From Escherichia coli (lineage in GTDB: Bacteria > Pseudomonadota > Gammaproteobacteria > Enterobacterales > Enterobacteriaceae): a stretch of 64,000 nucleotides of DNA. How positions within the stretch are numbered: position 1 is the first letter of the stretch; every line of letters starts with the position of its first letter. The position numbers were made by a program, and so were the translations under genes. The stretch is taken from the NCBI RefSeq assembly GCF_046105845.1, contig NZ_CP151004.1; one strand, 5' to 3'. This document shows positions 8,055 through 49,500 of the stretch, piece after piece. The notes below the pieces were generated by a model, which saw only the letters and a program-made list of their open reading frames with translations, was not told where the DNA came from and did not search any database.

Positions 8055-8069
8055 CCTGGTGCTCATTTG

Positions 8070-8170
8070 ATTGCCGGATGCGGCGTGAACGCCTTATCCG
8101 ACCTGTGGAAACAGTGATATTTCCAGGTCGGATAATCAGCATCGCATCAGGCACAAATACCGAATGCCTA
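8070..8170. repeat. REP/BIME palindromic elements
   Basis: gccggatgcggcgtgaacgccttatccgacctg and a second inverted REP-like unit between convergent purK and arcC. Confidence 0.6.
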
Positions 8171-8173
8171 CGA

Positions 8174-9067
8174 CTACAGCGAAATACAGGTCCCCGCTTC
8201 GCCCGCCAGCGTCTCTTCAATCCGCGATAACGCCCCAATCCACGCAGGTTTACCACGGCTTCTGACATAGCCACTCACCGCAGTCACCTTCGGCCCCATC
8301 GAACCATCGGCTTTGGCAAATGGCGCTAACTCATCCGGTGTGGCATGGCGAATGGCACGTTGCTGCGGCGTTCCCCAGTTTTCATATACCGCATCAGCAT
8401 CGGTGAGGATCACCAGTCCATCGGCATTAATCTGCTCGGCAAGCAACGCAGCGGCGAGATCTTTATCAATCACCGCTTCACTCCCTGCTCCGTCATCCGT
8501 CACCGGCACACCGCCGCCGCCACTGCAAATTACCACATGCCCCTCTTTGAGCAACAACTCAATGGCTTCGCTGTCGAGAATTTTACGCGGTTGCGGAGAC
8601 GCCACCACCCGGCGTAAATATTTACCATCACGTTTCATCTGCCAGCCATAAGCCGCTTCCAGTGCCTCTTGTTCTTCTGGCTGATAAACCGGACCGATAA
8701 ACTTCTCTGGCTGCAAAAACGCCGGATCATCAGGCGAAACTTCAATGCGCGTCAGCACCGTCGTGACAGGCGGCATCTGCGGCTGTGCGCCCAAACTCTG
8801 CGCCAGCATATAGCCAATCATCCCCTGGCTTTCCGCAACCAGCACATCCAGCGGATACGGTTCTACCTCTTTCCACGCCAGATTCTGCAATGCCAGCAGC
8901 CCCACCTGCGGCCCGTTGCCGTGAACAATCGCCAGCCGATAAGAACGGGCCAGGCGCGCCAGCGCGGGTACAGCACTGGCGATATTGCGATATTGATTTT
9001 CTGCCGTCAGCGCCTCACCGCGCTGGAGTAAGGCGTTGCCCCCAAGAGCCACAACCAGTGTTTTCAT
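8174..9067 (-). CDS. arcC: Carbamate kinase-like protein
   Basis: 297-aa ORF, carbamate kinase family ([18 protein letters not shown]...); matches the E. coli ybcF/arcC position. Confidence 0.9.
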
Positions 9068-9879
9068 GGTTTTCCTTGTAATAATTGTTGGCCAAGCCAG
9101 AACCCCAGCAGCGTATCTGCCCCTGACGTATGCCCCAGCGCCAGCAGCGAATCAATCGCAACAGCGGTACGTTTCGGGCAACTCAGAGCATGAACAAAGT
9201 GCAGGAGTGGCGAGGCGAAATATCCTTGCGCGGCATAACGTAAATAACTGACGCTCACCGCAGTGGTAACGAGTTGAAGATGGTCGGAACAGGCAAAAAA
9301 ATGGCGACCGGAGCGCGCATCTAAAGCGCCATAATACCAGGCCGCCAGCAGCATTCCGCTCAGCGTGTCATCATGACTTGGCGTTAATCCCGGACCTTTA
9401 CCCAGCCAGTGCCGCCAGTCGGTCTTCACGCCATTGAGCGCGGCCTGAAAACAGTGGCGAAACTGGCGTAATTCAGCAGGCAGCGGATCGCTTGTCGCCA
9501 TCGCCAGTGGCCCGAAAAGCCCGGTTTCCTCCGCGCGTTGCATCCATGCAACGGCAAGCGGTTGAGGATGCGCAGGCGGCGTAATACGCAGCAGATAATA
9601 ACGCTGTGGCTGTTTAACCGTGAAACGCCCGAGGCGAATCCCTTGTGCCACAACCTGTGGTCGTTCATTGCCGCATAATCCACCGCATAACGCATCGAAT
9701 TGCGCGCGGCGAAGCACCCATCCGCCGGGGCCGAAACCACTACCCTGACGATGCAGCGTTAACAGTTCGCCGCTTTCCGTCATCAGGTTAATCGCCCGCC
9801 GCCACACTCCCGCTAACCGCCAGGACTGGCGATAATTCGGTGCGCTACTAATGGCAAGCAGAGGATGGATGATCGTCAT
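9064..9879 (-). CDS. ylbF: Conserved protein YlbF
   Basis: 271-aa ORF overlapping arcC start by 4 bp; position and sequence match ylbF. Confidence 0.85.
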
Positions 9880-9889
9880 TGTGCGTTCC

Positions 9890-11149
9890 TCAACCTATCC
9901 CCATGCTTTCAGCCAGTGCTTCCAGCGCTTGTTCAAAGCAGGCCAACGGTGCCCGCACAGTGCCTGCGCCAATCTGCCCGATCCCCGCCTCTTTATGGGC
10001 GATACCGGTATTGATGAGTGGCGTAATGCCGGTTTCTACCACGCGACGAATATCCAGCCCCAGGCACGCGCCCTGGAAATCCCAGCCGGGGATCTGCAAC
10101 TGCATATTGCGTTCAAGATAAATTTCCGCCATCTCTTCAGATACCGCCCTGGCCGCTTCCATGCCACCCGCACCGACAAAGCGCGTTACGCCAGGTGCTG
10201 CGATCATCGCCGCTCCGCCAATACCAAAGGTTTCGGTAATTGCGCTATCGCCCATATCCGGGTTCGCCTGCTCCTGCGAGAAGCCGGTGAAAAACAGACC
10301 TTGGGGAGTGTTTACAGGCGCAGTAAACCAGCGTTCGCCCAGCCCGCTGACCCGAATCCCGAACATATTGCCGTTGCGGGTCATTGCCGTGACGATGCTG
10401 CCTGCGCGGATCATCGCACCAGCATCCATCGCCGCCTTGCAGTAAGCCATCGCGAGGTTAAGGAAGAACTGATCGGTCACGCTGAGGAAATCCATCACTT
10501 CCGCAATGTGCTGTTTATCATGATCGAGGCGTGCAATTTGTGGGGCCAGCGTACGCATTAACAGTGCTGAGGAAGCAATATTGCGTTGATGGAACTCATC
10601 GCCCATGGTAATGCCCTGCGCCATCATTGCCGTGAGATCGATACCGCGCTCCATGCGCCCCAGCGCCGCGCTTAATACTGGCATTAACACATCGCGCATC
10701 CAGCGATGGCGAGTCAGGACATCTTCGCCGTAAGCGCCAAAACGCATCACTTTGCCGATACCTTCGTTGAGGTTGCAGTACGCCCGGTTGCCGTCGGTCA
10801 CGTTCTCGACCACCAGCATCGGCATACTGGCAGAAGTAATACCGCCCATTGGCCCGACGGCATTCACATGGTGACAAGGAATGAAGTTCACTTCCCCCTG
10901 CTCCAGTATTGCCAGCGCCTGCGCTTCATCTTTCGCCCAGCCTTCGAACAGACATGCGCCCACGCACGCCCCTTTCATGGGTCCGGTCATCTCCTGCCAG
11001 CGCATTGGCGGCCCGGCGTGAAGCAGTGTTTTGCCCTTGTTTAGTTCGCTGATAAGTGAAGAAGCCGGTTGCACATCCAGCCAGTGTGGACGAGCGCGAC
11101 GAATTTGTTCGATAACCGCAGCATTGGCTTGCGCCACTGATGTAAACAT
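9890..11149 (-). CDS. ylbE: Conserved protein YlbE, intact
   Basis: Uninterrupted 419-aa ORF between ylbF and fdrA. Confidence 0.85.
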
Positions 11150-11158
11150 GGGAACCCC

Positions 11159-12826
11159 TTATTGCAAACGTTCTAATAAACGAGCCAGTTTTTTATTGCC
11201 GCCGGCGACTGGCGACCATTGGTAATGCACAACCGGTTTGCTGGCGCTTTGTAGCTCCAGCGCAAAGCTGCGTAATCCGATGTTAATCACGGCGACGTTT
11301 TCCAGTAATGACGGTGTGTGTTGCTGTGCGGCAGGCGAGAGCGGATGAATTAACGCTGCCGCCAGCAAGGTGGCTTCCGGTAGCGAACTCACGACAGCAA
11401 TCCCCGCATCTTCCAGCGTGGCGATTTGCTGCGAGCGGCATTGCGGGTCACGTTCGGTACCTGTCACCGTGGCAATGGCGTACAGCGGTTGGCTGTCTGA
11501 ACGCGCGGCACAGGCTTTTTGCCAGGCGCTCACCAGCGAGGCGGCAGGATCGGCGGTCGCACCGAAGCCAATCACGACATCAAGCAGCAACACGCGCACT
11601 TGCGGTTTAGCGCCGAGATCGGCAATTAACTGGTTGCGTAAGGTTGGGTCGATCATCGGATGGGGACGCCCGACGGTGTAGAAATCATCGCCAAGGTCAA
11701 TGATCTGGTGACCATCGGCGTCGAGCATCATGCCGTGATGATGGGTATCGTCGGCTTCCACGCCAAGGTGTCCGGCAAGTAATCCCGCCGCTTCAGCAGC
11801 CAGCGTACCGCCGGTATACAAACCGCAAATAAATCCGCTGCTGACAGGTGCTATTGCGTTACGTCGCGCCGTGACGCGTGAAAGCAGGCAAGCCAGGCGT
11901 GCGGCCTCATCCAGCGAGGAGGCAAACCAGACATTTTCGTCGCGGGCCACCGCCGGGGTATAACCTAAAAACAGCGCCACCGTCGGTTTGCCGGTTGCTT
12001 TCATGGCATTAACAATTTTCAGACGCACAGCTTCGGCAGGTGGTTTTGAAACAAATGCCAGCACTTCGCTTTTCTCGTCTGCACTGAGCATTTCCAGCGC
12101 CGTCAGCGCACTGATGCCGCCCACTTCACGGCTGAGGTCGCGCCCGCCAAGGCCAATCGCGTGAGTAATTCCCTCCCCTGCCAGCGCAATCTGCGAACAC
12201 AGCTCCTGAATCCCGGTACCGGAAGCGCCAATGACGCCAATATTGCCTTCCGGCATCACGTTAGCAAAAGCCAGCGGCGTGGCGGCAATCATCGACGTAC
12301 CGCAGTCTGGCCCCATCACCAGCAAGCCTTTTTCCCGCGCGCGGGTTTTAAGTTGGATTTCATCTTCCAGCGTGACGTTATCGGAGAACATCATCACGTT
12401 GAGGTTGCGATCCAGCGCCTGATTCGCCAGCTCCGCCGCATACTCGCCAGCCACTGAAATCAGCGCCAGACTGGCGTCGGGTAATTTCTGACAGGCACTG
12501 TCCCAGCGACGCACCTGCGTCAACGCCTGGCTGCTGCCTGAACCCTGCGCCAGTTGTTTTAGCGCCTCTTCAAGCTGCTGCATAACCGCCTGCGCGATCC
12601 CCGCATCCGCCGCTTCGCTACGAATTGCCACGCAAATATCGTTCGGCGTGGCGTGATTAAAATCGTCATGCCAGAAACCTGTCGTCTCTAATAACGCTTT
12701 ATTGGCAGGCGTACCCATCATTACAGAAACATCATCAACATTTTCTGATTCGCTAAGTTTTCGTGAAATAATCATTAAACTGACCGAATCCTGAAAACAC
12801 CCTTTTTTAATAAAGGCGTGGATCAT
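11159..12826 (-). CDS. fdrA: FdrA (acyl-CoA synthetase / succinyl-CoA synthetase alpha-like)
   Basis: 555-aa ORF with CoA-binding and ligase-CoA-like segments; recognised FdrA. Confidence 0.9.
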   Translation of the reverse strand: MIHAFIKKGCFQDSVSLMIISRKLSESENVDDVSVMMGTPANKALLETTGFWHDDFNHATPNDICVAIRSEAADAGIAQAVMQQLEEALKQLAQGSGSSQALTQVRRWDSACQKLPDASLALISVAGEYAAELANQALDRNLNVMMFSDNVTLEDEIQLKTRAREKGLLVMGPDCGTSMIAATPLAFANVMPEGNIGVIGASGTGIQELCSQIALAGEGITHAIGLGGRDLSREVGGISALTALEMLSADEKSEVLAFVSKPPAEAVRLKIVNAMKATGKPTVALFLGYTPAVARDENVWFASSLDEAARLACLLSRVTARRNAIAPVSSGFICGLYTGGTLAAEAAGLLAGHLGVEADDTHHHGMMLDADGHQIIDLGDDFYTVGRPHPMIDPTLRNQLIADLGAKPQVRVLLLDVVIGFGATADPAASLVSAWQKACAARSDSQPLYAIATVTGTERDPQCRSQQIATLEDAGIAVVSSLPEATLLAAALIHPLSPAAQQHTPSLLENVAVINIGLRSFALELQSASKPVVHYQWSPVAGGNKKLARLLERLQ

Positions 12827-13142
12827 AACAACTCCTTAAAAATTGCACCCATGGCAATTGCACGAGCAGTGTTAATGTGGCAATTACGGTATCGATGACA
12901 ACGGGTAAATAAGGTGATGAATATCACACAGGGATTATTAACAAAAGAATTCAAATAACCGCCATGTTATTACGCGTTACTTTTTAATAAGCGTGGTTGT
13001 TTTAAAAACCAGGTTAAAAGCGAGCGGATTATCAAATAAATTCTAACTATATTTTTTTGCCTGTCTGGATCACATAATCCAGATATTTTCCCTGTATGTT
13101 AATTGCAGTCATGCTTCACACCGTCGTTAAAAAGGAAGACAG

Positions 13143-14192
13143 ATGAAAATCAGTCGGGAAACACTCCACCAGCTAATCGAGAATAAACTCTGCCAGGCTG
13201 GGTTAAAACGTGAGCACGCTGCAACCGTGGCTGAAGTATTGGTTTACGCCGATGCCAGAGGGATCCACTCTCATGGCGCGGTGCGTGTTGAATACTACGC
13301 AGAACGCATTTCAAAAGGCGGCACCAACCGTGAACCGGAATTTCGTCTTGAAGAAACCGGGCCGTGTTCGGCAATTTTACATGCCGACAATGCCGCCGGA
13401 CAGGTCGCGGCGAAAATGGGTATGGAACATGCCATCAAAACCGCCCAGCAAAAAGGCGTTGCGGTGGTCGGTATCAGCCGGATGGGTCACAGCGGCGCAA
13501 TCTCTTATTTTGTACAGCAGGCAGCTCGCGCCGGGTTAATTGGCATTTCGATGTGCCAGTCCGATCCAATGGTGGTGCCGTTTGGCGGCGCGGAAATTTA
13601 CTACGGAACTAACCCACTGGCCTTTGCCGCGCCGGGAGAAGGCGACGAGATCCTTACCTTTGATATGGCGACTACCGTACAGGCATGGGGAAAAGTGCTC
13701 GACGCCCGCTCGCGTAATATGTCTATCCCGGATACCTGGGCGGTCGATAAAAACGGAGCACCAACAACCGATCCATTTGCAGTTAACGCCCTGCTCCCTG
13801 CCGCCGGACCGAAAGGGTATGGCCTGATGATGATGATTGACGTCCTCTCAGGCGTCTTACTCGGCTTACCGTTCGGGCGACAGGTTAGTTCGATGTATGA
13901 CGATTTACACGCCGGGCGTAATTTGGGGCAATTACATATCGTTATTAATCCGAACTTTTTCTCCTCCAGCGAACTATTCCGTCAACATCTTAGCCAGACC
14001 ATGCGCGAATTAAATGCCATAACCCCCGCGCCCGGTTTTAACCAGGTTTATTATCCCGGACAGGATCAGGATATTAAACAACGCAAAGCCGCCGTCGAAG
14101 GCATCGAAATTGTTGATGATATTTACCAGTATTTAATTTCCGACGCGCTTTATAACACGTCATACGAAACGAAAAATCCCTTTGCGCAATAA
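13143..14192 (+). CDS. allD: Ureidoglycolate dehydrogenase
   Basis: 349-aa ORF, recognised AllD; divergent from fdrA across a 316-bp AT-rich promoter region. Confidence 0.95.
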   Translation: MKISRETLHQLIENKLCQAGLKREHAATVAEVLVYADARGIHSHGAVRVEYYAERISKGGTNREPEFRLEETGPCSAILHADNAAGQVAAKMGMEHAIKTAQQKGVAVVGISRMGHSGAISYFVQQAARAGLIGISMCQSDPMVVPFGGAEIYYGTNPLAFAAPGEGDEILTFDMATTVQAWGKVLDARSRNMSIPDTWAVDKNGAPTTDPFAVNALLPAAGPKGYGLMMMIDVLSGVLLGLPFGRQVSSMYDDLHAGRNLGQLHIVINPNFFSSSELFRQHLSQTMRELNAITPAPGFNQVYYPGQDQDIKQRKAAVEGIEIVDDIYQYLISDALYNTSYETKNPFAQ

Positions 14193-14213
14193 TTATTGAG
14201 ACAGGACTTTCTT

Positions 14214-15449
14214 ATGATTACACATTTCCGTCAAGCCATAGAAGAAACGCTGCCCTGGCTTTCCTCTTTTGGCGCTGACCCAACGGGTGGTATGACCCGT
14301 TTACTTTATTCGCCGGAATGGCTGGAAACTCAGCAGCAATTTAAAAAAAGAATGGCAGCAAGCGGGCTGGAAACACGTTTCGATGAAGTGGGGAATTTAT
14401 ATGGTCGCCTGAGTGGCACCGAATATCCACAGGAAGTGGTTCTGAGCGGTTCGCATATCGATACCGTGGTTAACGGCGGTAACCTCGACGGGCAATTCGG
14501 CGCGCTGGCGGCGTGGCTGGCAATTGACTGGCTGAAAACGCAATACGGCGCGCCGTTACGTACGGTCGAAGTGGTGGCGATGGCAGAAGAAGAAGGCAGC
14601 CGCTTCCCGTATGTCTTCTGGGGCAGTAAAAATATCTTTGGGCTGGCGAATCCTGACGACGTGCGGAATATCTGTGATGCCAAAGGAAATAGTTTTGTCG
14701 ATGCGATGAAGGCTTGCGGATTTACTCTGCCGAACGCCCCACTAACTCCGCGTCAGGATATTAAAGCCTTTGTCGAACTGCATATCGAACAGGGCTGTGT
14801 GCTGGAAAGTAATGGGCAGTCAATTGGCGTGGTGAATGCAATTGTCGGGCAGCGTCGTTATACGGTGACGCTGAACGGCGAATCAAACCATGCAGGCACC
14901 ACGCCGATGGGTTATCGTCGTGATACGGTTTACGCTTTCAGTCGCATTTGCCATCAGTCGATCGAAAAAGCGAAAAAGATGGGCGACCCGCTGGTGCTGA
15001 CCTTTGGCAAGGTGGAGCCGCGTCCGAATACGGTGAATGTGGTGCCGGGTAAAACCACGTTCACCATTGATTGTCGTCATACCGATGCTGCCGTGCTGCG
15101 CGATTTCACCCAACAGTTAGAAAACGACATGCGGGCGATTTGCGATGAAATGGACATTGGTATTGATATCGATTTATGGATGGACGAAGAACCCGTGCCG
15201 ATGAATAAGGAGCTGGTCGCCACCCTGACAGAATTGTGTGAAAGTGAAAAACTGAATTACCGGGTGATGCACAGTGGTGCCGGGCACGACGCGCAAATTT
15301 TCGCGCCTCGCGTGCCGACCTGCATGATTTTCATTCCCAGCATCAACGGGATCAGCCATAACCCGGCGGAACGCACCAATATTACCGACCTTGCCGAAGG
15401 GGTCAAAACGTTGGCACTCATGCTTTATCAACTTGCCTGGCAGAAATAA
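14214..15449 (+). CDS. allC: Allantoate amidohydrolase
   Basis: ORF 14196..15449 begins at a TTG; ATG at 14214 gives the 411-aa form MITHFRQAIEETLPWL...; M20 peptidase family. Confidence 0.95.
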   Translation: MITHFRQAIEETLPWLSSFGADPTGGMTRLLYSPEWLETQQQFKKRMAASGLETRFDEVGNLYGRLSGTEYPQEVVLSGSHIDTVVNGGNLDGQFGALAAWLAIDWLKTQYGAPLRTVEVVAMAEEEGSRFPYVFWGSKNIFGLANPDDVRNICDAKGNSFVDAMKACGFTLPNAPLTPRQDIKAFVELHIEQGCVLESNGQSIGVVNAIVGQRRYTVTLNGESNHAGTTPMGYRRDTVYAFSRICHQSIEKAKKMGDPLVLTFGKVEPRPNTVNVVPGKTTFTIDCRHTDAAVLRDFTQQLENDMRAICDEMDIGIDIDLWMDEEPVPMNKELVATLTELCESEKLNYRVMHSGAGHDAQIFAPRVPTCMIFIPSINGISHNPAERTNITDLAEGVKTLALMLYQLAWQK

Positions 15450-15459
15450 GGAGTTATAA

Positions 15460-16245
15460 ATGGGATATTTAAATAACGTCACCGGTTACCGCGATGATTT
15501 ACTGGCTAACCGTGCGATTGTTAAACACGGTAATTTCGCGCTGCTAACCCCGGACGGTCTGGTAAAAAATATTATTCCGGGCTTTGAAAATTGTGACGCG
15601 ACAATCCTCTCCACGCCAAAGCTGGGTGCCTCTTTTGTTGATTATCTGGTCACACTGCATCAAAACGGTGGTAACCAACAGGGCTTCGGTGGTGAAGGAG
15701 TTGAAACGTTCCTGTATGTGATCTCTGGAAATATCACTGCCAAAGCTGAAGGGAAAACATTTACCTTAAGCGAAGGTGGCTATCTTTATTGCCCGCCAGG
15801 CTCCTTAATGACGTTTGTTAACGCCCAGGCCGAAGACAGCCAAATCTTTTTATATAAGCGCCGCTATGTTCCGGTAGAAGGCCATGCACCGTGGCTGGTT
15901 TCTGGCAATGCCAGCGAGCTCGAACGCATTCATTATGAAGGCATGGACGATGTTATTCTGCTGGATTTTCTGCCCAAAGAGTTAGGTTTTGATATGAACA
16001 TGCATATCCTCTCTTTTGCGCCAGGTGCCAGCCACGGTTATATCGAAACTCACGTCCAGGAACACGGTGCCTATATTCTTTCCGGTCAGGGGGTTTATAA
16101 CCTCGACAATAACTGGATCCCGGTGAAAAAAGGCGATTACATCTTTATGGGCGCTTATTCCTTACAGGCCGGTTATGGCGTAGGGCGTGGTGAAGCGTTT
16201 AGTTATATTTACTCGAAAGATTGCAACCGCGACGTAGAGATTTAA
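15460..16245 (+). CDS. allE: (S)-ureidoglycine aminohydrolase (cupin)
   Basis: 261-aa ORF, recognised YlbA/AllE. Confidence 0.93.
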   Translation: MGYLNNVTGYRDDLLANRAIVKHGNFALLTPDGLVKNIIPGFENCDATILSTPKLGASFVDYLVTLHQNGGNQQGFGGEGVETFLYVISGNITAKAEGKTFTLSEGGYLYCPPGSLMTFVNAQAEDSQIFLYKRRYVPVEGHAPWLVSGNASELERIHYEGMDDVILLDFLPKELGFDMNMHILSFAPGASHGYIETHVQEHGAYILSGQGVYNLDNNWIPVKKGDYIFMGAYSLQAGYGVGRGEAFSYIYSKDCNRDVEI

Positions 16246-16314: not shown

Positions 16315-16329
16315 GCGGTAAATTCAGGT

Positions 16330-16360
16330 AAAAAACGGATGCGGGATAAAATGCATCCGC
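16330..16360 (-). terminator. Probable terminator after glxK
   Basis: Minus-strand hairpin cggatgc/gcatccg with a 10-nt loop, followed by a U-run (A-run 16330..16335 on plus). Confidence 0.5.
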
Positions 16361-26454: not shown

Positions 26455-26859
26455 TTATGCAAGTCGGTTGCAGGCGAAAAGTGGGTGATGCCAGACGTTA
26501 CGATGGTAATTCACTCCCTGTTCGCCGTTGGTAATAAACGCCCGCAGAGTTGACAGGTCTGGTTTGTCGTCACCTAACGCCACGACCACCACAAACACTT
26601 CACCTTTCATCGGGATAAAGGCCTGAGTACCCAGCGGATGACGTTCGAGTTCGTGAATGGTCAGCGGCAGATTCGCCGGTTGCGCGCGGTTAATGCTGAT
26701 AAGCGTACGGTCTTGCTCAAGAATCTCAACCAGCGCCAAATCGTGGTAACGCTCCACCAGGCCATTGTTAATATGGAAAAAATCCCGTTGCTGCGTTTCG
26801 ATTACATCGCCATAAGCACTAAAGGCTTCCTGACTTAACGGTAATACCTGAAGTTTCAT
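26455..26859 (-). CDS. allA: Ureidoglycolate lyase, apparently C-terminally shortened
   Basis: 134-aa [31 protein letters not shown]... ending ...[11 protein letters not shown], stop 55 bp upstream of allR start. Start at 26859 is bounded by an in-frame TGA upstream. Confidence 0.8.
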
Positions 26860-29178: not shown

Positions 29179-29241
29179 TGGGCGGTATTCTGAAACGGCG
29201 ATTGTCGTGAGAACAGAATGGTTGCACCAGAATACAGATAT

Positions 29242-29271
29242 AAAAAAACCGACATGACAGTCGGTTTTTTT
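29242..29271. terminator. Bidirectional intrinsic terminator
   Basis: Perfect 12-bp stem aaaaaaaccgac / gtcggttttttt with 6-nt loop; a U-run follows in either reading direction. Lies after selU (+) and at the predicted 3' end of the antisense sRNA (-). Confidence 0.6.
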
Positions 29272-29329
29272 ATTTTTTCCGCCCAAAACTTGGTGGTTCC
29301 GGGCAGAAATGAAACAGTCCTCATCTAGC
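29242..29329 (-). ncRNA. Candidate antitoxin sRNA of a type I toxin-antitoxin module
   Basis: Minus-strand promoter -35 TTGAAT (29364..29359), 17-bp spacer, -10 TATAAT (29341..29336); predicted start ~29329; terminator 29242..29271. Its 5' end is the reverse complement of 29315..29330, a 16-nt direct repeat of 29503..29518 in the toxin 5' UTR, so it can pair with the toxin mRNA in trans. Confidence 0.4.
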
Positions 29330-29335
29330 AAGTGA

Positions 29336-29364
29336 ATTATAAGTCAGGATGCCTACATATTCAA
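29336..29364 (-). promoter_or_regulatory. Near-consensus sigma70 promoter for the candidate antisense sRNA
   Basis: TTGAAT-17 bp-TATAAT read on the minus strand. Confidence 0.45.
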
Positions 29365-29589
29365 ACAGCTATGTTGGCGATACAATCCCGACGCTAGTAG
29401 TGATACTGCCTCAAGGGATTACCGCAGTGCGGAAAAGTACTTTTAAGTCCTGGTCAGGATACAGGTGGTGCTGATTCTGGTGCTCTAATTTGGAGAGAGG
29501 CAGTCCTCATCTAGCACATGAAGAAAATCATAGTTACAGGCAACGTAAGGGTAAGCTGTGATTGTCTTTCTCCCTTAAGGGAGCAACGG

Positions 29590-29673
29590 ATGAAAACTTT
29601 TCTCGATAAAGTTCTCATCATTCTTAAGGCGCTAATCGCGCTGCTGGAACTGATCCGTCAGTTTATTGAATAA
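29590..29673 (+). CDS. Candidate type I toxin: 27-aa hydrophobic membrane peptide (DinQ/TisB-like)
   Basis: atg...taa encoding MKTFLDKVLIILKALIALLELIRQFIE; SD-like aggga 7-9 nt upstream; single predicted TM helix; the ALIALLELIR stretch matches my recollection of E. coli DinQ. Too short to appear in the ORF track. Confidence 0.5.
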   Translation: MKTFLDKVLIILKALIALLELIRQFIE

Positions 29674-29690
29674 CTGAGGAAACGTAGCTA

Positions 29691-29745
29691 AGGCCGAAGG
29701 TTTACCACCTTCGGCCTTTAAAAAAACCGACATGACAGTTGGTTT
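29691..29745 (+). terminator. Tandem terminator-like hairpins after the toxin ORF
   Basis: GC hairpin aggccgaagg / ccttcggcct, then a degenerate second copy of the aaaaaaaccgac-atgaca-gttgg element with a T-rich tail. Confidence 0.4.
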
Positions 29746-29776
29746 CATATTTATTGCCAAAATGCACACTGTTCAT

Positions 29777-29875
29777 GCCAGATGCGGCGTAAACGCCTTA
29801 TCCGGCCTACACAATCTTGCAAAATCAATATATTGCACGATCCTCGTAGGCCTGATAAGCGTAGCGCATCAGGCA
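29777..29875. repeat. REP/BIME palindromic elements
   Basis: gccagatgcggcgtaaacgccttatccggcctac ... cgtaggcctgataagcgtagcgcatcaggc, inverted REP pair next to the ybbP stop. Confidence 0.6.
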
Positions 29876-29890
29876 ATCTAACGCCTGTCA

Positions 29891-38867: not shown

Positions 38868-39233
38868 TTAAATTTTCCTGCCTGGCGTAAACCTCTTAAA
38901 AATTGAGATTTATCAAAGAAACGCATTTTAGCACACATCAGGAACCGCTTCACGTTTAGTTCAGAAACAGAATTTATTTCGCTTATCAAAACAAGTCTTT
39001 ACTCTTTTTTACATTGAAAGAGCACAAAATGATTTTCTATTTTATTTATATAAGAAACATTTTTTGTTTCTTATTGGTGGTGTTTACGCTTACACCAGAC
39101 AAAAATGCGCTTTACATCACACAAATGGCGGCGTAGATTTCGATCAAATTGCAACGCAGATTAATTCTTATAACAACGTTTTACGTTGCTTATAGAAACA
39201 AATATGTGACTTACTTTGAAAGAGAAAAAATGC

Positions 39234-42125
39234 ATGAAAACTGTAAAGCTGTCTTTACTGGCTGTCGTTGTTGCTACCGCGGTAAGTCCATCTGCGTTTG
39301 CGGGTGATACTGTTGAGGCGGCAACGACAGAATTAACGGCAATCCAGCCAGGAATGTCGCAATCGGAAATTGATCAGAAAATTGGTCGATTTTTAGAAAG
39401 GACAGGGAATAGTGCAGCCGCACAAAATTATCTGATTGCGCATGATTACCGGACAACGACACCTCAGGAAAATACAGCTGCCTCTCCCGTACAGCCCGCC
39501 AATACGCTGAACCCGATAACCAATCAAGCGCAGACCGACCGCGACAACGGGCAGGATACCGCCATTCAGGACGCACAACATGCCGCCAACTGGGCTTCAC
39601 TGAAAGCTGATGACGCGCAGCACGCCATCACGGTGGCGCAGACGGATATTGATGCCAATAAAGCCGCCATCGCCGACACCCGTAATGATGTCTCCGCAGT
39701 GCAGTCAGACGTCACCAACATAAAAGGCGATGTCGCACATGCCCAGTCAACGGCTGACCATGCCAACGCTAACGCCAACACCGCTCTGATGAACGGCGTC
39801 AAACTTTCCGGTGCTGTGGCAGAAAACAAAAACAATATCGAACAGAACCGCAGCGATATTGCTGACCAGCAGAAACTGTTGGCATCAAACGAGCAAAAAC
39901 AGATCGTCCGCGACAACGGGCAGGATACCGCCATTCAGGACGCGCAACATGCCGCCAACTGGGCTTCACTGAAAGCTGATGACGCGCAGCACGCCATCAC
40001 GGTGGCGCAGACGGATATTGATGCCAATAAAGCCGCCATCGCCGACACCCGTAATGATGTCTCCGCAGTGCAGTCAGACGTCACCAACATAAAAGGCGAT
40101 GTCGCACATGCCCAGTCAACGGCTGACCATGCCAACGCTAACGCCAACACCGCTCTGATGAACGGCGTCAAACTTTCCGGTGCTGTGGCAGAAAACAAAA
40201 ACAATATCGAACAGAACCGCAGCGATATTGCTGACCAGCAGAAACTGTTGGCATCAAACGAGCAAAAACAGATCGTCCGCGACAACGGGCAGGATACCGC
40301 CATTCAGGACGCGCAACATGCCGCCAACTGGGCTTCAATGAAAGCTGATGACGCGCAGCACGCCATTATGGTGGCGCAGACGGATATTGATGCCAATAAA
40401 GCCGCCATCGCCGACACCCGTAATGATGTCTCCGCAGTGCAGTCAGACGTCACCAACATAAAAGGCGATGTCGCACATGCCCAGTCAACGGCTGACCATG
40501 CCAACGCTAACGCCAACACCGCTCTGATGAACGGCGTCAAACTTTCCGGTGCTGTGACAGAAAACAAAAACAACATCGAACAGAACCGCAGCGATATTGC
40601 CGACCAGCAGAAACTGTTGGCATCAAACGAGCAAAAACAGATCGTCCGCGACAACGGGCAGGATACCGCCATTCAGGACGCACAACATGCCGCCAACTGG
40701 GCTTCAATGAAAGCTGATGACGCGCAGCACGCCATTATGGTGGCGCAGACGGATATTGATGCCAATAAAGCCGCCATCGCCGACACCCGTAATGATGTCT
40801 CCGCAGTGCAGTCAGACGTCACCAACATAAAAGGCGATGTCGCACATGCCCAGTCAACGGCTGACCATGCCAACGCTAACGCCAACACCGCTCTGATGAA
40901 CGGCGTCAAACTTTCCGGTGCTGTGACAGAAAACAAAAACAACATCGAACAGAACCGCAGCGATATTGCCGACCAGCAGAAACTGTTGGCATCAAACGAG
41001 CAAAAACAGATCGTCCGCGACAACGGGCAGGATACCGCCATTCAGGACGCACAACATGCCGCCAACTGGGCTTCAATGAAAGCTGATGACGCGCAGCACG
41101 CCATTATGGTGGCGCAGACGGATATTGATGCCAATAAAGCCGCCATCGCCGACACCCGTAATGATGTCTCCGCAGTGCAGTCAGACGTCACCAACATAAA
41201 AGGCGATGTCGCACATGCCCAGTCAACGGCTGACCATGCCAACGCTAACGCCAACACCGCTCTGATGAACGGCGTCAAACTTTCCGGTGCTGTGACAGAA
41301 AACAAAAATAATATCGAACAGAACCGCAGCGATATTGCTGACCAACAGCAACAACTCGACGAAACCCGGAAAACCGTTGCCGCCACCGGTGATGTACAGA
41401 CTGCCGCCCGATATCAGAGCATGATTGACGCCAGACAGACTGCTGCTGCCAATGCGCAACAGGAACAAGCGGACACCCAGCAGCAACAAATGGACGATCA
41501 GCAGAAACAAATCGACGCGACGCAAAAAACGGTTTCCGCACTTGGCGATGCCCAGACCAACGCACATTATCAAGAGATGGTTAACGCCGGACTGAGAGCA
41601 CAAAATGATGCGAATGCGCGTACTGCAGCAGAACAAAAACAAAAAATAGATACTCTGGCGACTAACCAGGCAACGCAACAGCATATCGATAGTGTGCAGT
41701 ACGGGGAACAAATTCAGCGTCTGGCGCAAGACTCAACACAAACGCATGAACAAATTGACAGCCTGACACAAGACGTAACCCAAACGCATCAGCAGTTAAG
41801 CAACACGCAAAAACGAGTAGCGGATAATAGCCAGCAGATTACTACGCTCAATAACCATTTCAGTTCGCTGAAAAACGAAGTTGAGGACAACCGTAAAGAA
41901 GCCAATGCGGGAACTGCATCAGCCATCGCTATCGCCTCACAACCACAGGTGAAAGCCGGTGACTTTATGATGATGTCAGCGGGAGCGGGAACCTTCAACG
42001 GTGAATCTGCGGTGTCTGTCGGAACATCTTTTAATGCCGGAACGCATACCGTGATTAAAGCCGGTGTCTCTGCGGATACGCAATCTGATTTCGGCGCGGG
42101 TGTCGGCGTGGGATATTCTTTCTAA
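39234..42125 (+). CDS. Trimeric autotransporter adhesin-like protein (type Vc) with coiled-coil repeat stalk and YadA-type anchor
   Basis: ORF 39216..42125; ATG at 39234 gives 963 aa. Sec signal peptide MKTVKLSLLAVVVATAVSPSAFA; long Q/A/N/D-rich helical repeat region; C-terminus EANAGTASAIAIASQPQVKAGDFMMMSAGAGTFNGESAVSVGTSFNAGTHTVIKAGVSADTQSDFGAGVGVGYSF fits the YadA-like anchor pattern (alternating small residues, glycine-rich beta strands, terminal aromatic). No recognisable YadA head motifs. Confidence 0.75.
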   Translation: MKTVKLSLLAVVVATAVSPSAFAGDTVEAATTELTAIQPGMSQSEIDQKIGRFLERTGNSAAAQNYLIAHDYRTTTPQENTAASPVQPANTLNPITNQAQTDRDNGQDTAIQDAQHAANWASLKADDAQHAITVAQTDIDANKAAIADTRNDVSAVQSDVTNIKGDVAHAQSTADHANANANTALMNGVKLSGAVAENKNNIEQNRSDIADQQKLLASNEQKQIVRDNGQDTAIQDAQHAANWASLKADDAQHAITVAQTDIDANKAAIADTRNDVSAVQSDVTNIKGDVAHAQSTADHANANANTALMNGVKLSGAVAENKNNIEQNRSDIADQQKLLASNEQKQIVRDNGQDTAIQDAQHAANWASMKADDAQHAIMVAQTDIDANKAAIADTRNDVSAVQSDVTNIKGDVAHAQSTADHANANANTALMNGVKLSGAVTENKNNIEQNRSDIADQQKLLASNEQKQIVRDNGQDTAIQDAQHAANWASMKADDAQHAIMVAQTDIDANKAAIADTRNDVSAVQSDVTNIKGDVAHAQSTADHANANANTALMNGVKLSGAVTENKNNIEQNRSDIADQQKLLASNEQKQIVRDNGQDTAIQDAQHAANWASMKADDAQHAIMVAQTDIDANKAAIADTRNDVSAVQSDVTNIKGDVAHAQSTADHANANANTALMNGVKLSGAVTENKNNIEQNRSDIADQQQQLDETRKTVAATGDVQTAARYQSMIDARQTAAANAQQEQADTQQQQMDDQQKQIDATQKTVSALGDAQTNAHYQEMVNAGLRAQNDANARTAAEQKQKIDTLATNQATQQHIDSVQYGEQIQRLAQDSTQTHEQIDSLTQDVTQTHQQLSNTQKRVADNSQQITTLNNHFSSLKNEVEDNRKEANAGTASAIAIASQPQVKAGDFMMMSAGAGTFNGESAVSVGTSFNAGTHTVIKAGVSADTQSDFGAGVGVGYSF
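39540..41343 (+). repeat. 4.9 tandem copies of a 369-bp (123-aa) near-identical in-frame repeat within the autotransporter gene
   Basis: cgcgacaacgggcaggatacc recurs at 39540, 39909, 40278, 40647 and 41016 (exact 369-bp period). Unit begins RDNGQDTAIQDAQHAANWAS... Copies 1-2 and copies 3-5 form two subtypes (LKADD/ITVAQ/AVAEN versus MKADD/IMVAQ/AVTEN). Confidence 0.92.
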
Positions 42126-42836: not shown

Positions 42837-43244
42837 TCACCCCGCCCGATGATGACAGCAGCCGGAGAGATTTTCGATAATCGGGCAGTCGGCGCTGTCA
42901 TCGCCAGGGCAGGCATTCGCCAGCGCCAACAGCTGGTTGCGCATGGATTGCAGTTCTTCGATATGTCGCTCGATCTCCGCCACTTTCTCCAGGGTGCGAC
43001 GTTTGACGTCGGCACTGTGACGCTGCGGATCGTTAAACAGATTCACCAGCTCGCCGCTCTCTTCCAGGTTAAAGCCCACCTGGCGTGCCTGGCGCAGTAA
43101 GGTCAGTTCGTTGAGATGCTGCTGCGTGTAAGTACGATAACCGTTTTCGCTGCGCATCGGCGGCGTCACCAGCCCCTTCTCTTCATAGAAGCGGATTGCT
43201 TTGCTGGTCAGGCCGGTAATTTTTGCTACATCGCTAATGTTCAT
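42837..43244 (-). CDS. cueR: MerR-family copper-responsive regulator
   Basis: 135-aa [32 protein letters not shown]... with C-terminal metal-binding CPGDDSADC...CCHH; recognised CueR. Confidence 0.95.
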
Positions 43245-44416
43245 CGTTCGCGCAACGCCTCCTGTGCTTTATTAAAGGGTTTCAACAGATAATCCAGCAC
43301 GCTTTTTTTGCCGGTGCGGATATCGACCGTCGCCACCATGCCGGGAAATATCGGAAACTGCTGTTTACTTTTGTTTTCCAGATGGTTGCTGAAAGTGCGA
43401 ATGTACACCCGATAGTAATAAACATCGCGCCGCACTTCATCCTGCACGGTGTCTGGTGATATCACCGCCACTTCTCCCGGCAGGCCGCCGTAGATGGAGT
43501 AATCGTAGGCGGTTATTTTCACCAGCGATTTTTGCCCCGGATGGATAAACGCCACATCGCGCGGGGAGATTTTTGCCTCGATCAGCAGTTGCTCATCCAG
43601 CGGCACGATGGTCATCAGTTTACCACCGGGGGCAATGACCCCGCCAACCGTGGTGACGTCAATGTCCTGAACAATGCCTCGCACCGGCGCGGTAAAGTTG
43701 AGCCTGGTGAGGGAGTCTTCCCGTCCACGGATCACCGAACGCTGGGTTTCCACTTCCGCATTGGCTTTCGCTAACTCTTCGCGCGCCTGAACGTAATATT
43801 GCGTGCGCACGTCGCTAAGTTTGTTTTCCAGTTCATTGGCCTGGCGTTGCAGGCGCAGCACTTCAACGCTGCTCGCCGCCCCCTGTTTTACCAGCGGCTG
43901 GGTCATCGCCAGTTCGCGGTTGACCAGGCTAATCCCCTGCGTCAGCCCGGTGGTGGCTTTGTTCAGCCCATCGCGGCGAGTGTTGTACAACGCCGTTTCC
44001 GACTCGATAAGTTCGGGGAATTTATTCAGTTCGTCAGGGAAGACCAGCGGTTTATTGCTCACTTCCGCCCGCAGCCGCGCCGAGGTTGCCAGCGCCGCGT
44101 ACAGCCGCGACATTGCTTCCTGGACGTCGGATTCCGTTTTGGTGCGGTTAAGCTGCGCCAGCGGCTGGCCCTGTTCAACAATATCGCCAACCTTGACGTC
44201 GAGATGATACAGAATTCCGCCTTCCAGCGACTGCACCACCTGTTCGCGCCCGGAGGGTTCTACCGTGCCGCTGCCGGTGGTGACTTCATCAAGCTGGAAG
44301 TACCACGCCCAGCCGAGAAAACAGAGCAGCATCACAGCGGTAACGCGTACCGCCAGCGCCGAACGCGGCAAGCGGGGTTCAGTCAGGCCACGGTTGTATT
44401 GCAGTTGTCCGTTCAT
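43241..44416 (-). CDS. Type I secretion periplasmic adaptor (HlyD family membrane fusion protein)
   Basis: 391-aa ORF with N-terminal TM anchor, long coiled-coil region and C-terminal beta domain typical of HlyD/LapC; its stop overlaps the cueR start (ATGA). Confidence 0.88.
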
Positions 44417-46575
44417 GCGGCAGACCCCTTATTCTTCTCCTGCAACACCACCCGTCGCGCCGTGGGTTCGCTCTGTTCACGCAAAATGGCCTCTTTCGCG
44501 CCATCCATCACAATCCGCCCCTGATCCATCACGATGATCCTGTCCACCAGTTGCAGCATCGCCGTGCGGTGAGTAGCGATGACCAGCGTGCGATGCCCAA
44601 TCCACTGTTTCAGTTGTTCGATTAAATACGCTTCCGCCATTTCGTCCAGCGAGGCGCTGGGTTCATCGAGCAGCACGATATTGGGTTGAGAGATGAGTAG
44701 CCGCGCCAGCAGCAGCGTTTGCCGCTGACCACCAGAGAGGCCAAATCCCCCTTCCTGAATCATGTAGTTGAGGCCGTTTTTCTGCTTCTGCACAAAGGGC
44801 AGCGCGCCACTTAGCGTTAACGCGCGTTCGATATCTTCATCGCTGGCCTCCGGCATCCCCATGGTGAGGTTTTCCCGCAGCGAACCAAAAAACAGTCGCC
44901 CGGTCTGGCTCAGCAGCCCCATGTCGCGGCGCAGATCTGCCGGATCAAGTTGCCCGATGCTGATGTTATCCAGTAGCACCTGCCCCTGCTGGGCGATACG
45001 CATTCCGGCGAGCATTTGCAGTAGCGTTGATTTACCCGCGCCGTTGCGCCCGAGAATGGCGATTTTCTCTCCGGCCTGAATGTTGAGTTTGCCAATCGCC
45101 ACATCGGCAATCTTCTCTTCTTCGTCGTAATAAAATACCGCGTTGCTGAACTGATAATTGCCGTGCAGCACCGCTTTATGCACCAGTTTGCCGTGTTCCG
45201 GCTGATCCACCGGGCGCTTCATCAGTTCATCAAGGCCATTACGCGCTACTTTCGCCTGCTGCCAGCGCGAGAGCACGCCGGATATCTGCGACAGCGGCGC
45301 GATGGTGCGCGAAGCCAGGATCGTCGTCCCGACCAGCGCGCCGGTGGTCATGTCACCGTTCATTACCATAAAGCAGCCCACCAACAGCACCACCACGTAG
45401 ACGATGGACTGCACTTCCTGGGTCCAGGTGAGCAGTAGCCCGGTGAGAAAACGTTGCTTCATACTGATGGACGAGGCCACGTCGTTGGTGTGGTTCCACT
45501 GATTCTGAAAACGCTGTTCGGCGCGCAGCAGCTTAATATCTTCAATCGACTGCACGGCTTCCACCAGCGTAGCGTTACGCACCGCCGACTCGCGCATCCC
45601 TTCGTTCGCCAGCCGCGCCAGCGGGCGTTGTACCAGCAGGCCGGGGATCACCAATAACGGCAGCGCCAGCAAAACCACCAGCACCAGCCAGCCGCCAATC
45701 ATCCACAAAATAAAGACAAACAGCAGGAAGAACGGCAGATCCGCCACTGCACCAATAGTGGTGGAGGTGATCAGCTCCCGAACCGATTCCAGTTCGCGGA
45801 TCTGCGAGATAAACGATCCGGTGGATTTCGATCGCACGTTGTTTTTAAGCCGTAGCGCATGACCAAAAACGCGATCCGAAATACGCAGATCCGCCCGCTT
45901 GCCGATCACATCCGAAAGATGTGTGCGCACCATGCGCATACAGAACTCAAACAGGATCGCCATCATCACCCCGGCGAACAGCACCCATAGCGTCGGGTAC
46001 GATTGCGCCGGAACGACGCGGTCGTAAACCTGCATCGAGAAAATCATCGCCGCAAGCGCCAGCACGTTCGCCACCAGTGACGCCAGCATAATATCGCCAT
46101 AGCGCCGCCAGTCTTTTAGCGAGAGATTCCAGAACCAGTTCGCCTGATACGGGCGAATATAGTCGTCTACCCGCGCGTCAGGAATAGCGCTGAGCGGGCG
46201 CAACAGCGCCAGTTCGACGATGTTATCTTCAATATCCGTAACGTTAAGCGTGGTTTCCAGCCCTTCGTCACCGCTGAACTGAACGCTGATATTGTCGTGA
46301 TTATCGCGGCGGGTGATCACGCCAATCTGCTGATTATCAAATACCGCGATCAGCGGCAGACGCCACGGGTTAAGCGAGTCGGCGGAGAACTCCACCAACC
46401 GTAACCCCATTCCCAACTGCCGCGCCATATCGGTGAGCAACTCTTCCCGCTTGCTGTCGCGCTCCCAGTTGACGGTTGCGCGCACGTTCTCCTGAGAAAA
46501 ATCGAGGCGGTAATAACGCGCCACGGCGATCATCGCCTCCAGCCAGGCTTCCACGGACTGGGCATTTTTTTTCAT
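44413..46575 (-). CDS. Type I secretion ABC transporter (ATPase/permease) with N-terminal C39-like extension
   Basis: 720-aa ORF: ~150-aa N-terminal extension, 6-TM region, then Walker A GRNGAGKST, signature LSGGQRQ, Walker B LLDEPSASLD; its stop overlaps the adaptor start (ATGA). Confidence 0.9.
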   Translation of the reverse strand: MKKNAQSVEAWLEAMIAVARYYRLDFSQENVRATVNWERDSKREELLTDMARQLGMGLRLVEFSADSLNPWRLPLIAVFDNQQIGVITRRDNHDNISVQFSGDEGLETTLNVTDIEDNIVELALLRPLSAIPDARVDDYIRPYQANWFWNLSLKDWRRYGDIMLASLVANVLALAAMIFSMQVYDRVVPAQSYPTLWVLFAGVMMAILFEFCMRMVRTHLSDVIGKRADLRISDRVFGHALRLKNNVRSKSTGSFISQIRELESVRELITSTTIGAVADLPFFLLFVFILWMIGGWLVLVVLLALPLLVIPGLLVQRPLARLANEGMRESAVRNATLVEAVQSIEDIKLLRAEQRFQNQWNHTNDVASSISMKQRFLTGLLLTWTQEVQSIVYVVVLLVGCFMVMNGDMTTGALVGTTILASRTIAPLSQISGVLSRWQQAKVARNGLDELMKRPVDQPEHGKLVHKAVLHGNYQFSNAVFYYDEEEKIADVAIGKLNIQAGEKIAILGRNGAGKSTLLQMLAGMRIAQQGQVLLDNISIGQLDPADLRRDMGLLSQTGRLFFGSLRENLTMGMPEASDEDIERALTLSGALPFVQKQKNGLNYMIQEGGFGLSGGQRQTLLLARLLISQPNIVLLDEPSASLDEMAEAYLIEQLKQWIGHRTLVIATHRTAMLQLVDRIIVMDQGRIVMDGAKEAILREQSEPTARRVVLQEKNKGSAA

Positions 46576-46578
46576 TAT

Positions 46579-49500
46579 CTACACCACCATCAACTGATGA
46601 TTCGCCAGCAAAGTGGCGAGGTCGGTGTGCACGCCCGTCAGCGTGACCACGTTAGTTGTCGCAAAAGTGCCGCCCGTGCCGTCGCGGTCGATCTGTACGA
46701 TGGTGTCGCTGCCGCTCTGGGTGACTTTGACAAAATCACCGATGTTTCCGGCCTGCGCATCCAGCGTTGCCACGCCGTTGACGTAGCTGGCTTTACCGTT
46801 GCCGGTGTAGCCGCTGCCCTGTAACAACTCGCGGATATCAATGCGATCGGTGTCGGCGGTGCCTTCCCATGTCCCTACCGTAAAGCCATTCACCACGTCT
46901 GAGCCGTTGCCGCCGGTCGCGTCGCTGGCGTTGAGCAGTTTATAGAGCAAGGTGTCGTGGCCGCCGTTGCCGATGTTGAGCGTGTCGTTACCGCCGCGCC
47001 CTTCCAGTTGGTTATCGCCGCTGCTGCCGGTCAGAGTGTCGTTAAAATTCGAGCCGGATATCCCTTCGATATTGGTAAATGTCGAGGTGTTAAAGCCGGT
47101 GGCCTGCGCGGCGGTGCTGCTTAAGTTCGCGGTCACGCCCACCGTCGAGAGGCGGAAATCAACCACGTCCATCCCGCCATTCGCCAGCCACGTTCCGGTG
47201 CCGGAGCTGTACACCCAACCGCCGGAGCCGTCGTAAGTGTCGGTGCCTGCGGTGGCAAAGAAGGTGTCGTTATAGCCGGTGCCGACGAACTTGCCATTGT
47301 TGCTCGCGGTGCCTGCTTCGGCGCTGAGGTCGTAAGCGTGGGTGGCATCGGTGGCCTGTAAGCCGCCCCAGCTGGTGTTGACCGTCTGGTCGATATTGCT
47401 GGCGGTGGTGCCGGTGGATTTGATCAGCACCGCGTTGTAGGTTTCTCCGGCATTCAGCCCGTAGAAGTTGACCAGCGCCGAGGTGTCGTTAACCCCCATA
47501 CCCGACTGCGGGTTGATGATTTGCGTGGCGACCAGCACTCCCGCCGAGTTGTACAGTTTTACGGTATTGCCGTAATAGACGTTAATGCCGTTAGGATCGG
47601 TGATGCGCAGGTGCAGCGAAGTGCCGTAGCTCACCGTGTTGGTGTTGCGAATAAGATAGACGCTGCCCGACTGTTTGGTCACCAGCACATCCACCGCGCC
47701 GTCCCAGTCGTAGTCCATTGCCGCCACGCCGCTGGTGGTACCGCTCTGGCTACCGCCGAGGGCCGATTGTGTCCAGTTGCTGGCATTGCTGACGTTGGTA
47801 TAAAGATACGACTGCCCGGTCTGGGCGATACGGGCGATATCCATCAGGCCGTCATGGTTCCAGTCCACCGCCAGGCTAAACTGGCTGGCGTAGGTGGTTG
47901 CCGTTGCGCCCACCGCCACCGGGCTACCCAGTACACCGTTGGTGTTGAATAACAGCGAGCCGTAGTTAGCTCTTCCCTGGCTGGCGGGCAGGAAGAGATC
48001 CATATCGCCGTCGCCATCGAAATCGGCCCAGGTCATGGAAACGCTGCTGCTCATAGCGCCACTACCCGCCCCGCTCAGGAAGGTATTGGTGGTGTTCTGC
48101 CCCCAGACAAACGTCCCATTCCCCTGGTTGATGAGCGAAGACAGTGTGTAATAGTTATTCAGGTTATAGGTGTGCTGAACCAGGTCGATCCTGCCGTCAT
48201 TATTCAGATCGACGCCAGAACCTTCGTTGAGCGAAAGATACCCCGTCACCGCCCCGCCCACCGTGGCGCTACCGCCGCTGTTCGACGTGGTGGAGGTGCC
48301 TACCAGCGTGCCTGCGTTGTTCCACAAGAAGGTGTTAGAGTCCGGCCCGCCCGCGTCGCCAATCCAGAAGTCGAGATAGCCGTCGCCCTCTTTATCAAAT
48401 GCCACAATCGAGCCGTACCACGTCAGGGTGCCGACGGTGACCTGAATAGCGCTGGAAAAGGTGCCGTCGCCGTTATTGGTAAAGCCGTTGATATAGCCTG
48501 TACCGTAGTCATCACGGGTGATAAACAGATCGCCCGTGCCGTTACGGTCGTAATCGGCGATGGAGCTGGTGGCGTAGTTGTTGCCGCTCTGATACAGCGT
48601 CAGCGCGGTCTTCGACCAGGTGAGTGGGTCAGTCGATTGCATTACCTGCTGGTTTGCCAGCACCGTCCACATCCCGTGCGAGTCGAGGCCGTAGGTCAAT
48701 CCCCAGGCGGTGGTTTTGCTGACGGTGGTCCAGGTCGGTGTGTAATCAATCGCCGCATTAACCGTCACCGTGCCGTTGCTAATATTGGCGTTATTGCCGT
48801 TACCCGCCGAACTTTTTACCTGCGCAGTAACGGTATAGGCGGTCGCGGAAACTGTCAGCGCATCGGTATCCGGCAACTGTACATACCAGGTGTTGTGCGC
48901 CGGATCGACCACTACCGCGCCGCCCGGTTCAGAGGTGTAGGTTTTGCCGTTGATCACCACTTCAACATACTGCCCACTGGCGAGTGCCGCCGTGATTACC
49001 CCGCTGATAATCGGCGTGGTATCGCGCGTGGTCTGGCTGGTAATTTGCGCCAGCGTGGTCGGAATAGAGGTATCGACCGTCAGGACAAAATCACTGGAGG
49101 CGGTGATATTCCCCGCCAGATCCACCACTCGCGCACTGTAGGTGTAGGCACCGCTCACCAGCCCGCTGTCGCTGTAGGTCCAGTTCAGTGCGCCTACCAT
49201 CGTTACCGCGCCTAACAGCAGGCCGTTACGGTAGAGGTAAACCACTTCACCGCTGGCAAGCGGGCCGGAGAGCACGCCGTTCAGCAACGGCGTAGTGTCG
49301 TCGGTGGCCTGCGAACTGCTTAATGTCCCCTGCCGCTGCCCGACGTCATCAGTGTACGACACAATGGTCGGCGTCGCGGTGGGGTTAATCGTATCGACCA
49401 CCACCGTTTTCGACACCACCGGACCGGTGTTCCCCGCCAGATCCAGCACCCGCACCTGATAAACATAGCTGCCGTCGGTCAGCGTGCGGCTGTCAGTGTA

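Follow-up and report, generated by a model that had tools for sequence, protein, structure and literature searches.

An intact ylbE (allG) gene in the allFGHK operon of an Escherichia coli strain, collinear with its counterpart in K-12 MG1655

The stretch of E. coli DNA analysed here (64,000 nucleotides, referred to below as the window) carries on its minus strand the genes fdrA, ylbE, ylbF and ybcF, whose current names are allF, allG, allH and allK and which stand for oxamic transcarbamylase and a carbamate kinase. The allD-allC-allE operon is transcribed away from them on the plus strand. The features of the locus, including two positions within ylbE at which a pseudogene allele of this gene differs, are as follows.

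8174..9067, minus strand: ybcF (allK), catabolic carbamate kinase, called "arcC" in an earlier reading of this DNA, 297 aa (NF006926, E=1e-186; TIGR00746 arcC, E=8.5e-128)
9064..9879, minus strand: ylbF (allH), third subunit, 271 aa (Pfam PF11392 AllH, E=2e-29)
9890..11149, minus strand: ylbE (allG), oxamic transcarbamylase (oxamate carbamoyltransferase, EC 2.1.3.5) subunit, 419 aa (open reading frame, Pfam, K-12 orthology, dN/dS, PDB homologue)
10894..10898, minus strand: run of five G (five C on the plus strand), gene nt 252-256 of ylbE (alignment of the window, MG1655 version 3, W3110 and DH10B; read in the sequence)
11036, minus strand: gene nt 114 of ylbE, the silent one of the two positions that set the K-12 pseudogene allele apart (G in the window, MG1655 version 3 and DH10B, but A in W3110)
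11159..12826, minus strand: fdrA (allF), succinyl-CoA-synthetase-alpha-like subunit, 555 aa (Pfam CoA_binding and Ligase_CoA; NCBIfam NF004760 FdrA, 1041 bits)
12827..13142, between the two operons: divergent allD/allF control region, 316 bp (ungapped comparison with MG1655)
13143..16245, plus strand: allD-allC-allE operon, encoding ureidoglycolate dehydrogenase, allantoate amidohydrolase and ureidoglycine aminohydrolase (full-length, stop-free K-12 matches)

An earlier reading of the same DNA, made from the sequence only, had reported an uninterrupted 419-aa frame at 9890-11149, and the list of open reading frames confirms it: the frame lies on the minus strand, starts with ATG and ends with TGA. 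With 54.5% G+C in the window, 419 sense codons would follow one another by chance with a probability of 2.7e-8, and about 1e-4 open runs of 419 codons are expected over the six frames of 64 kb. The product matched Pfam family PF06545 (formerly DUF1116, now named "Oxamate carbamoyltransferase subunit AllG") along the whole of its profile (positions 1-215 of 215; E=7.7e-98; 326.7 bits with a cut-off of 27). Because an open run of this length is so improbable, and because of the Pfam match and the identity to K-12, the minus-strand frame is a real gene and not a product of chance. A score above the gathering threshold, together with full-length orthology to the characterised K-12 AllG, places its product in the AllG/YlbE family. 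No NCBIfam model matched YlbE or YlbF, and the assignment to the AllG family thus rests on Pfam and orthology. A full-length homologue is present in the PDB (3clq, E=4.9e-111, spanning residues 2-414 of the window AllG); this DUF1116 family protein differs from the window AllG in having 421 aa and in coming from an organism other than E. coli, and it was deposited as an "uncharacterized protein" to which the depositors assigned no function.

Within the operon the genes are closely packed: 9 nt separate the fdrA stop codon from the ylbE ATG, 10 nt separate the ylbE stop codon from the ylbF ATG, and the ends of ylbF and ybcF share 4 nt (ATGA). The corresponding K-12 junctions have equal spacing and nearly the same sequence. 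Judged from the sequence, this arrangement marks the operon as translationally coupled. All four genes have their K-12 lengths with zero internal stops, and the gene order of the allFGHK operon, divergent from allDCE, was found with every partner intact. The genes allS, allD, allC, allE, allB and allW are likewise full-length and stop-free. The control region between the two operons is as long as its K-12 counterpart and differs from that of MG1655 by 12 substitutions and no indels. In K-12, AllS and ArcA act as activators of the allF operon, and the fragments upstream of allF used in EMSA were -203/-144 for AllS and -142/-83 for ArcA (PMC12535856); six of the substitutions fall in the AllS fragment and four in the ArcA fragment.

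The sequence-only reading had also taken ylbE to be frameshifted in K-12 MG1655, which was not borne out. In NC_000913.3, ylbE (b4572, UniProt P77129) is an intact 1260-bp coding sequence (548357..549616) without a pseudogene flag, and the ylbE gene of the window aligns with it over its full length, the two differing by 33 substitutions without any indel. The alignment with the K-12 ylbE region, which that reading had itself proposed as a check, thus finds the K-12 gene intact and collinear with the frame in the window, the very outcome it had named as speaking against its claim. The codon changes between the two genes comprise 30 synonymous and 3 non-synonymous ones (dN/dS 0.029); the proteins are identical at 416 of 419 residues with 0 gaps, and the differences from K-12 AllG are E38K, A200T and S355G. 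The neighbours of the MG1655 gene, its intergenic junctions and the length of its control region are all as in the window, which is syntenic with K-12 over 38 kb. The run of five G is also present in two other MG1655 assemblies (NZ_CP010439.1 and NZ_CP032667.1) as well as in DH10B, C600 and ER1709.

A frameshifted ylbE does exist in the W3110 record (NC_007779.1, 547581..548839), where the gene is annotated as a 1259-bp "frameshifted" pseudogene. When the window, MG1655 version 3, W3110 and DH10B were aligned, the W3110 gene departed from the other K-12 records at two positions only, namely the silent A at nt 114 and a run of four G instead of five at nt 252-256, the latter leading to a stop at codon 87. 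The locus and the flanking genes of this pseudogene allele are as in the window; the allele itself (four G with A at nt 114) was not found there, as the window has five G with G at nt 114. The ylbE gene of DH10B is intact. The ylbE corrections presumably entered the MG1655 record at version 3, and the primary description of the variation among MG1655 stocks is reportedly that of Freddolino et al. in 2012. In the old MG1655 reference, ylbE was a pseudogene with a silent change at nt 114 and one G missing at about nt 253 (PMC4404585, PMC5460176, PMC4759930, PMC3045373), position 114 being named in PMC4404585. The W3110 gene shows exactly this pair of changes, which several papers found to distinguish their own MG1655-derived strains from the MG1655 reference of the time. 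According to the same four papers, MG1655 stocks carry the intact allele; ylbE+ was also found in MG1655 ATCC47076 (PMC4759930), and in NCM3722 the change was said to have "restored an intact ancestral gene" (PMC3045373).

The frequency of the W3110 allele was determined with a 71-nt probe, scored by exact match among 5,426 complete E. coli genomes. Only four records contained it exactly: W3110, CIT, LIM and CAR. Since the site coordinates in CIT, LIM and CAR (547,797-547,798) are those of W3110, we infer that these three are K-12 assemblies built on the old reference. Among the matches listed, all others were of 72 nt at 98.6% identity with the extra G, and they included one MG1655 assembly, C600, ER1709 and ATCC 8739. 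The "K-12 frameshift" is a feature of the superseded MG1655 reference and of the W3110 record. The notion of a ylbE pseudogene in MG1655 goes back to that reference; it persists through the W3110 record and through a few assemblies with old-reference coordinates, and it should not serve as a strain marker.

Across the species, 5,417 of the 5,426 complete genomes carry allG with a coverage of at least 80%, and 59 of 60 evenly spaced records matched it over exactly 1260 bp in a single piece. In indexed public assemblies, the identical 419-aa protein is listed in 14,110 blocks of the index. In all six retrieved loci that encode the identical AllG (96-97% DNA identity to the window), the order allF-allG-allH-kinase was the same. 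Because the gene is nearly universal, is matched in one piece in 59 of 60 records and yields an identical protein so widely, intactness is the rule: an intact ylbE is the norm for E. coli and no peculiarity of this strain. Relative to K-12, dN/dS was 0.10 for allF, 0.145 for allH and 0.031 for allK, beside the 0.029 of allG.

The function of AllG was established in 2024 (PMC11326118). Under anaerobic conditions, wild-type MG1655 converted 19.5 mM allantoin to 17.7 mM oxamate; deletion of allF or allG abolished oxamate formation, deletion of allH reduced it to 1.2 mM, and a triple mutant was fully restored only by allFGH jointly (PMC11326118). The purified proteins 6xHis-AllF, AllG (46 kDa, obtained from the MG1655 gene) and AllH-6xHis formed oxalurate from oxamate and carbamoyl phosphate, (KM: carbamoyl phosphate, 1.3 mM; oxamate, 36.9 mM), and AllK/YbcF was described as a catabolic carbamate kinase (PMC11326118); PMC9843812 is a further reference for ybcF as a carbamate kinase. 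The reaction is of the type catalysed by the classical transcarbamylases (ATCase PyrB, OTCase ArgI/ArgF and YgeW), that is, a reversible carbamoyl transfer between phosphate and an amine or amide, but the classical enzymes have one catalytic chain whereas AllFGH requires three different subunits, which have no sequence similarity to the classical enzymes (PMC11326118). In agreement with this, a Pfam scan at E<=0.001 found no carbamoyl-phosphate-binding or Asp/Orn-binding domain of the OTCase/ATCase type in AllF, AllG, AllH or AllK of the window, and these proteins fall outside the classical aspartate/ornithine transcarbamylase superfamily.

By analogy with K-12, the following course of events would be expected in this strain during anaerobic growth on allantoin. 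AllS and ArcA would switch on allFGHK, and the enzymes of the allD-allC-allE operon would supply oxalurate to AllFGH, with AllD oxidising ureidoglycolate to oxalurate. AllFGH, with AllF, AllG and AllH each presumably essential, would then convert oxalurate and phosphate to oxamate and carbamoyl phosphate, and AllK would use carbamoyl phosphate and ADP to yield ATP, CO2 and NH3. As the four genes are intact and under strong purifying selection, their junctions are conserved and the other all genes named above are intact, we infer that the oxamate pathway probably operates in the strain from which the window derives. The sequence-only reading had claimed that the strain would carry the functional form of the fdrA-ylbE-ylbF-arcC group, unlike MG1655. 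The first part of this claim stands, since all the genes are intact and the group looks functional; the contrast with MG1655 does not.

A gene of the same regulon, allA (ureidoglycolate lyase; 26455-26859, minus strand), is truncated in the window, encoding 134 aa compared with 160 aa in K-12. Between two CGCCTG direct repeats, 100 bp have been deleted (junction at about 26471-26477); the last 32 codons and the stop codon are thereby lost, and 6 codons stand in their place. Of the 38 genes of K-12 that were examined where the window shares its gene order, allA is the sole damaged one. An 80-nt probe for the junction was non-discriminating, because undeleted genomes matched it as two joined pieces, whereas a 46-nt probe cannot seed in such genomes; with the latter, the junction was found in only 2 of the 5,426 complete genomes, ET650 and OkiPb01685, in both of which PGAP calls allA a pseudogene without its C-terminus. 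The truncation of allA is thus a more distinctive regulon feature of this strain than its intact ylbE. Because allA is truncated, flux through the allantoin pathway may differ from that in K-12. It is conceivable, although we consider it rather unlikely, that the combination of an intact oxamate branch kept under selection (allD, allFGH and allK) with a rare truncation of allA would leave oxalurate as the obligatory route for ureidoglycolate, with oxamate, carbamoyl phosphate and ATP as the outcome. If true, this would represent a lineage-specific rewiring of allantoin catabolism toward nitrogen and ATP yield, and away from the carbon branch through glyoxylate and glycerate.

Other interpretations of the locus need to be weighed at this point. 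The one closest to the earlier reading holds that a functional ylbE is really missing from K-12 MG1655, which would make the strain of the window notable for a functional operon. The 1259-bp frameshifted gene in the W3110 record is in its favour, as are the studies in which reads were mapped to the earlier MG1655 reference and ylbE figures as a pseudogene repaired by a gain of G and an A-to-G change. Nevertheless, the intact gene in NC_000913.3 already refutes a defect in MG1655, the five G recur in two further MG1655 assemblies and in DH10B, C600 and ER1709, and the four-G allele is matched exactly in 4 records only among 5,426 genomes. Moreover, wild-type MG1655 makes 17.7 mM oxamate from allantoin while its allG deletion mutant makes none, and the allFGH genes used to prepare the recombinant enzyme were amplified from MG1655 DNA (PMC11326118). 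We regard this interpretation as extremely improbable. It is also very unlikely that ylbE of the window is open but inactive or silent, that is, an intact-looking relic disabled by one of its three amino-acid substitutions or by the changes where AllS and ArcA bind: 10 of the 12 promoter substitutions do lie inside the two EMSA fragments (for AllS and ArcA), and allA of the same regulon is already decaying, but the dN/dS of 0.029 for allG, the very wide distribution of the exact AllG protein sequence, a control region without indels and the full-length, stop-free state of the remaining regulon genes, including allS, all argue against decay of this gene.

The role of the protein could be questioned as well, in that the main role of YlbE might be other than that of an oxamic transcarbamylase subunit, its link to the operon being secondary. 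Docking scores were alike for AllF, AllG and AllH; furthermore, allG supplied on a plasmid did not restore oxamate formation in the single allG deletion mutant (PMC11326118, Table 1). Against this, deletion of allG abolishes oxamate formation, full rescue of the triple mutant is achieved by allFGH together only, activity was measured on the purified three-protein preparation (PMC11326118), and the order allF-allG-allH-kinase is kept in every locus retrieved, leaving this possibility with hardly any credence. Judging from the sequence, ylbE of the window is almost certainly an ordinary, functional wild-type allele of the gene renamed allG. It is a known gene with a known function in its normal state.

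The window is collinear with MG1655 from 559.6 to 514.4 kb, in reverse orientation and at about 97-98% identity. Over positions 1-25000, the closest complete RefSeq E. coli genome among the 5,426 is no more than 98.3% identical and K-12 is about 97.4% identical; as none is closer than 98.3% over this part, the source lineage has no close representative among these complete genomes. The window differs from K-12 at several further places. The ybcF-purK spacer (8055-8173) measures 119 bp, whereas that of K-12 measures 194 bp and apparently holds more palindromic (REP-like) units, and the glxK-allE spacer (16316-16344) is also shorter than that of K-12. At 29181-29887, the RhsD element of K-12 (rhsD-ybbC-ylbH-ybbD-ylbI-ylbG, MG1655 522.8-530.1 kb) is absent, and ybbP and selU are separated by about 700 bp of unrelated sequence.

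Further along the window, a 4.5-kb insert that K-12 lacks separates ybbJ from cueR. It contains a 969-aa open reading frame (39216-42125, plus strand) with a C-terminal YadA-like membrane anchor, which identifies the product as a trimeric autotransporter adhesin. The cueR gene (42837-43244, minus strand) is intact and is 94.9% identical to that of K-12, compared with 96-99% for neighbouring core genes; it lies at the edge of an accessory island. This island, around and beyond cueR, encodes the YadA-like autotransporter together with type I secretion genes and a giant adhesin. K-12 lacks it, and 139 of the 5,426 complete genomes carry it with a coverage of at least 80%. The giant adhesin reading frame of more than 5,805 aa occupies 46579-63996 on the minus strand and runs off the end of the window; it contains numerous Big_13 Ig-like repeats along with FG-GAP repeats and, towards the C-terminus, an RTX repeat, and it is annotated as "SiiEA BapA-related adhesin" in related genomes. 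Genes for a type I secretion ABC transporter (44413-46575) and an HlyD-family adaptor (43241-44416) adjoin it.
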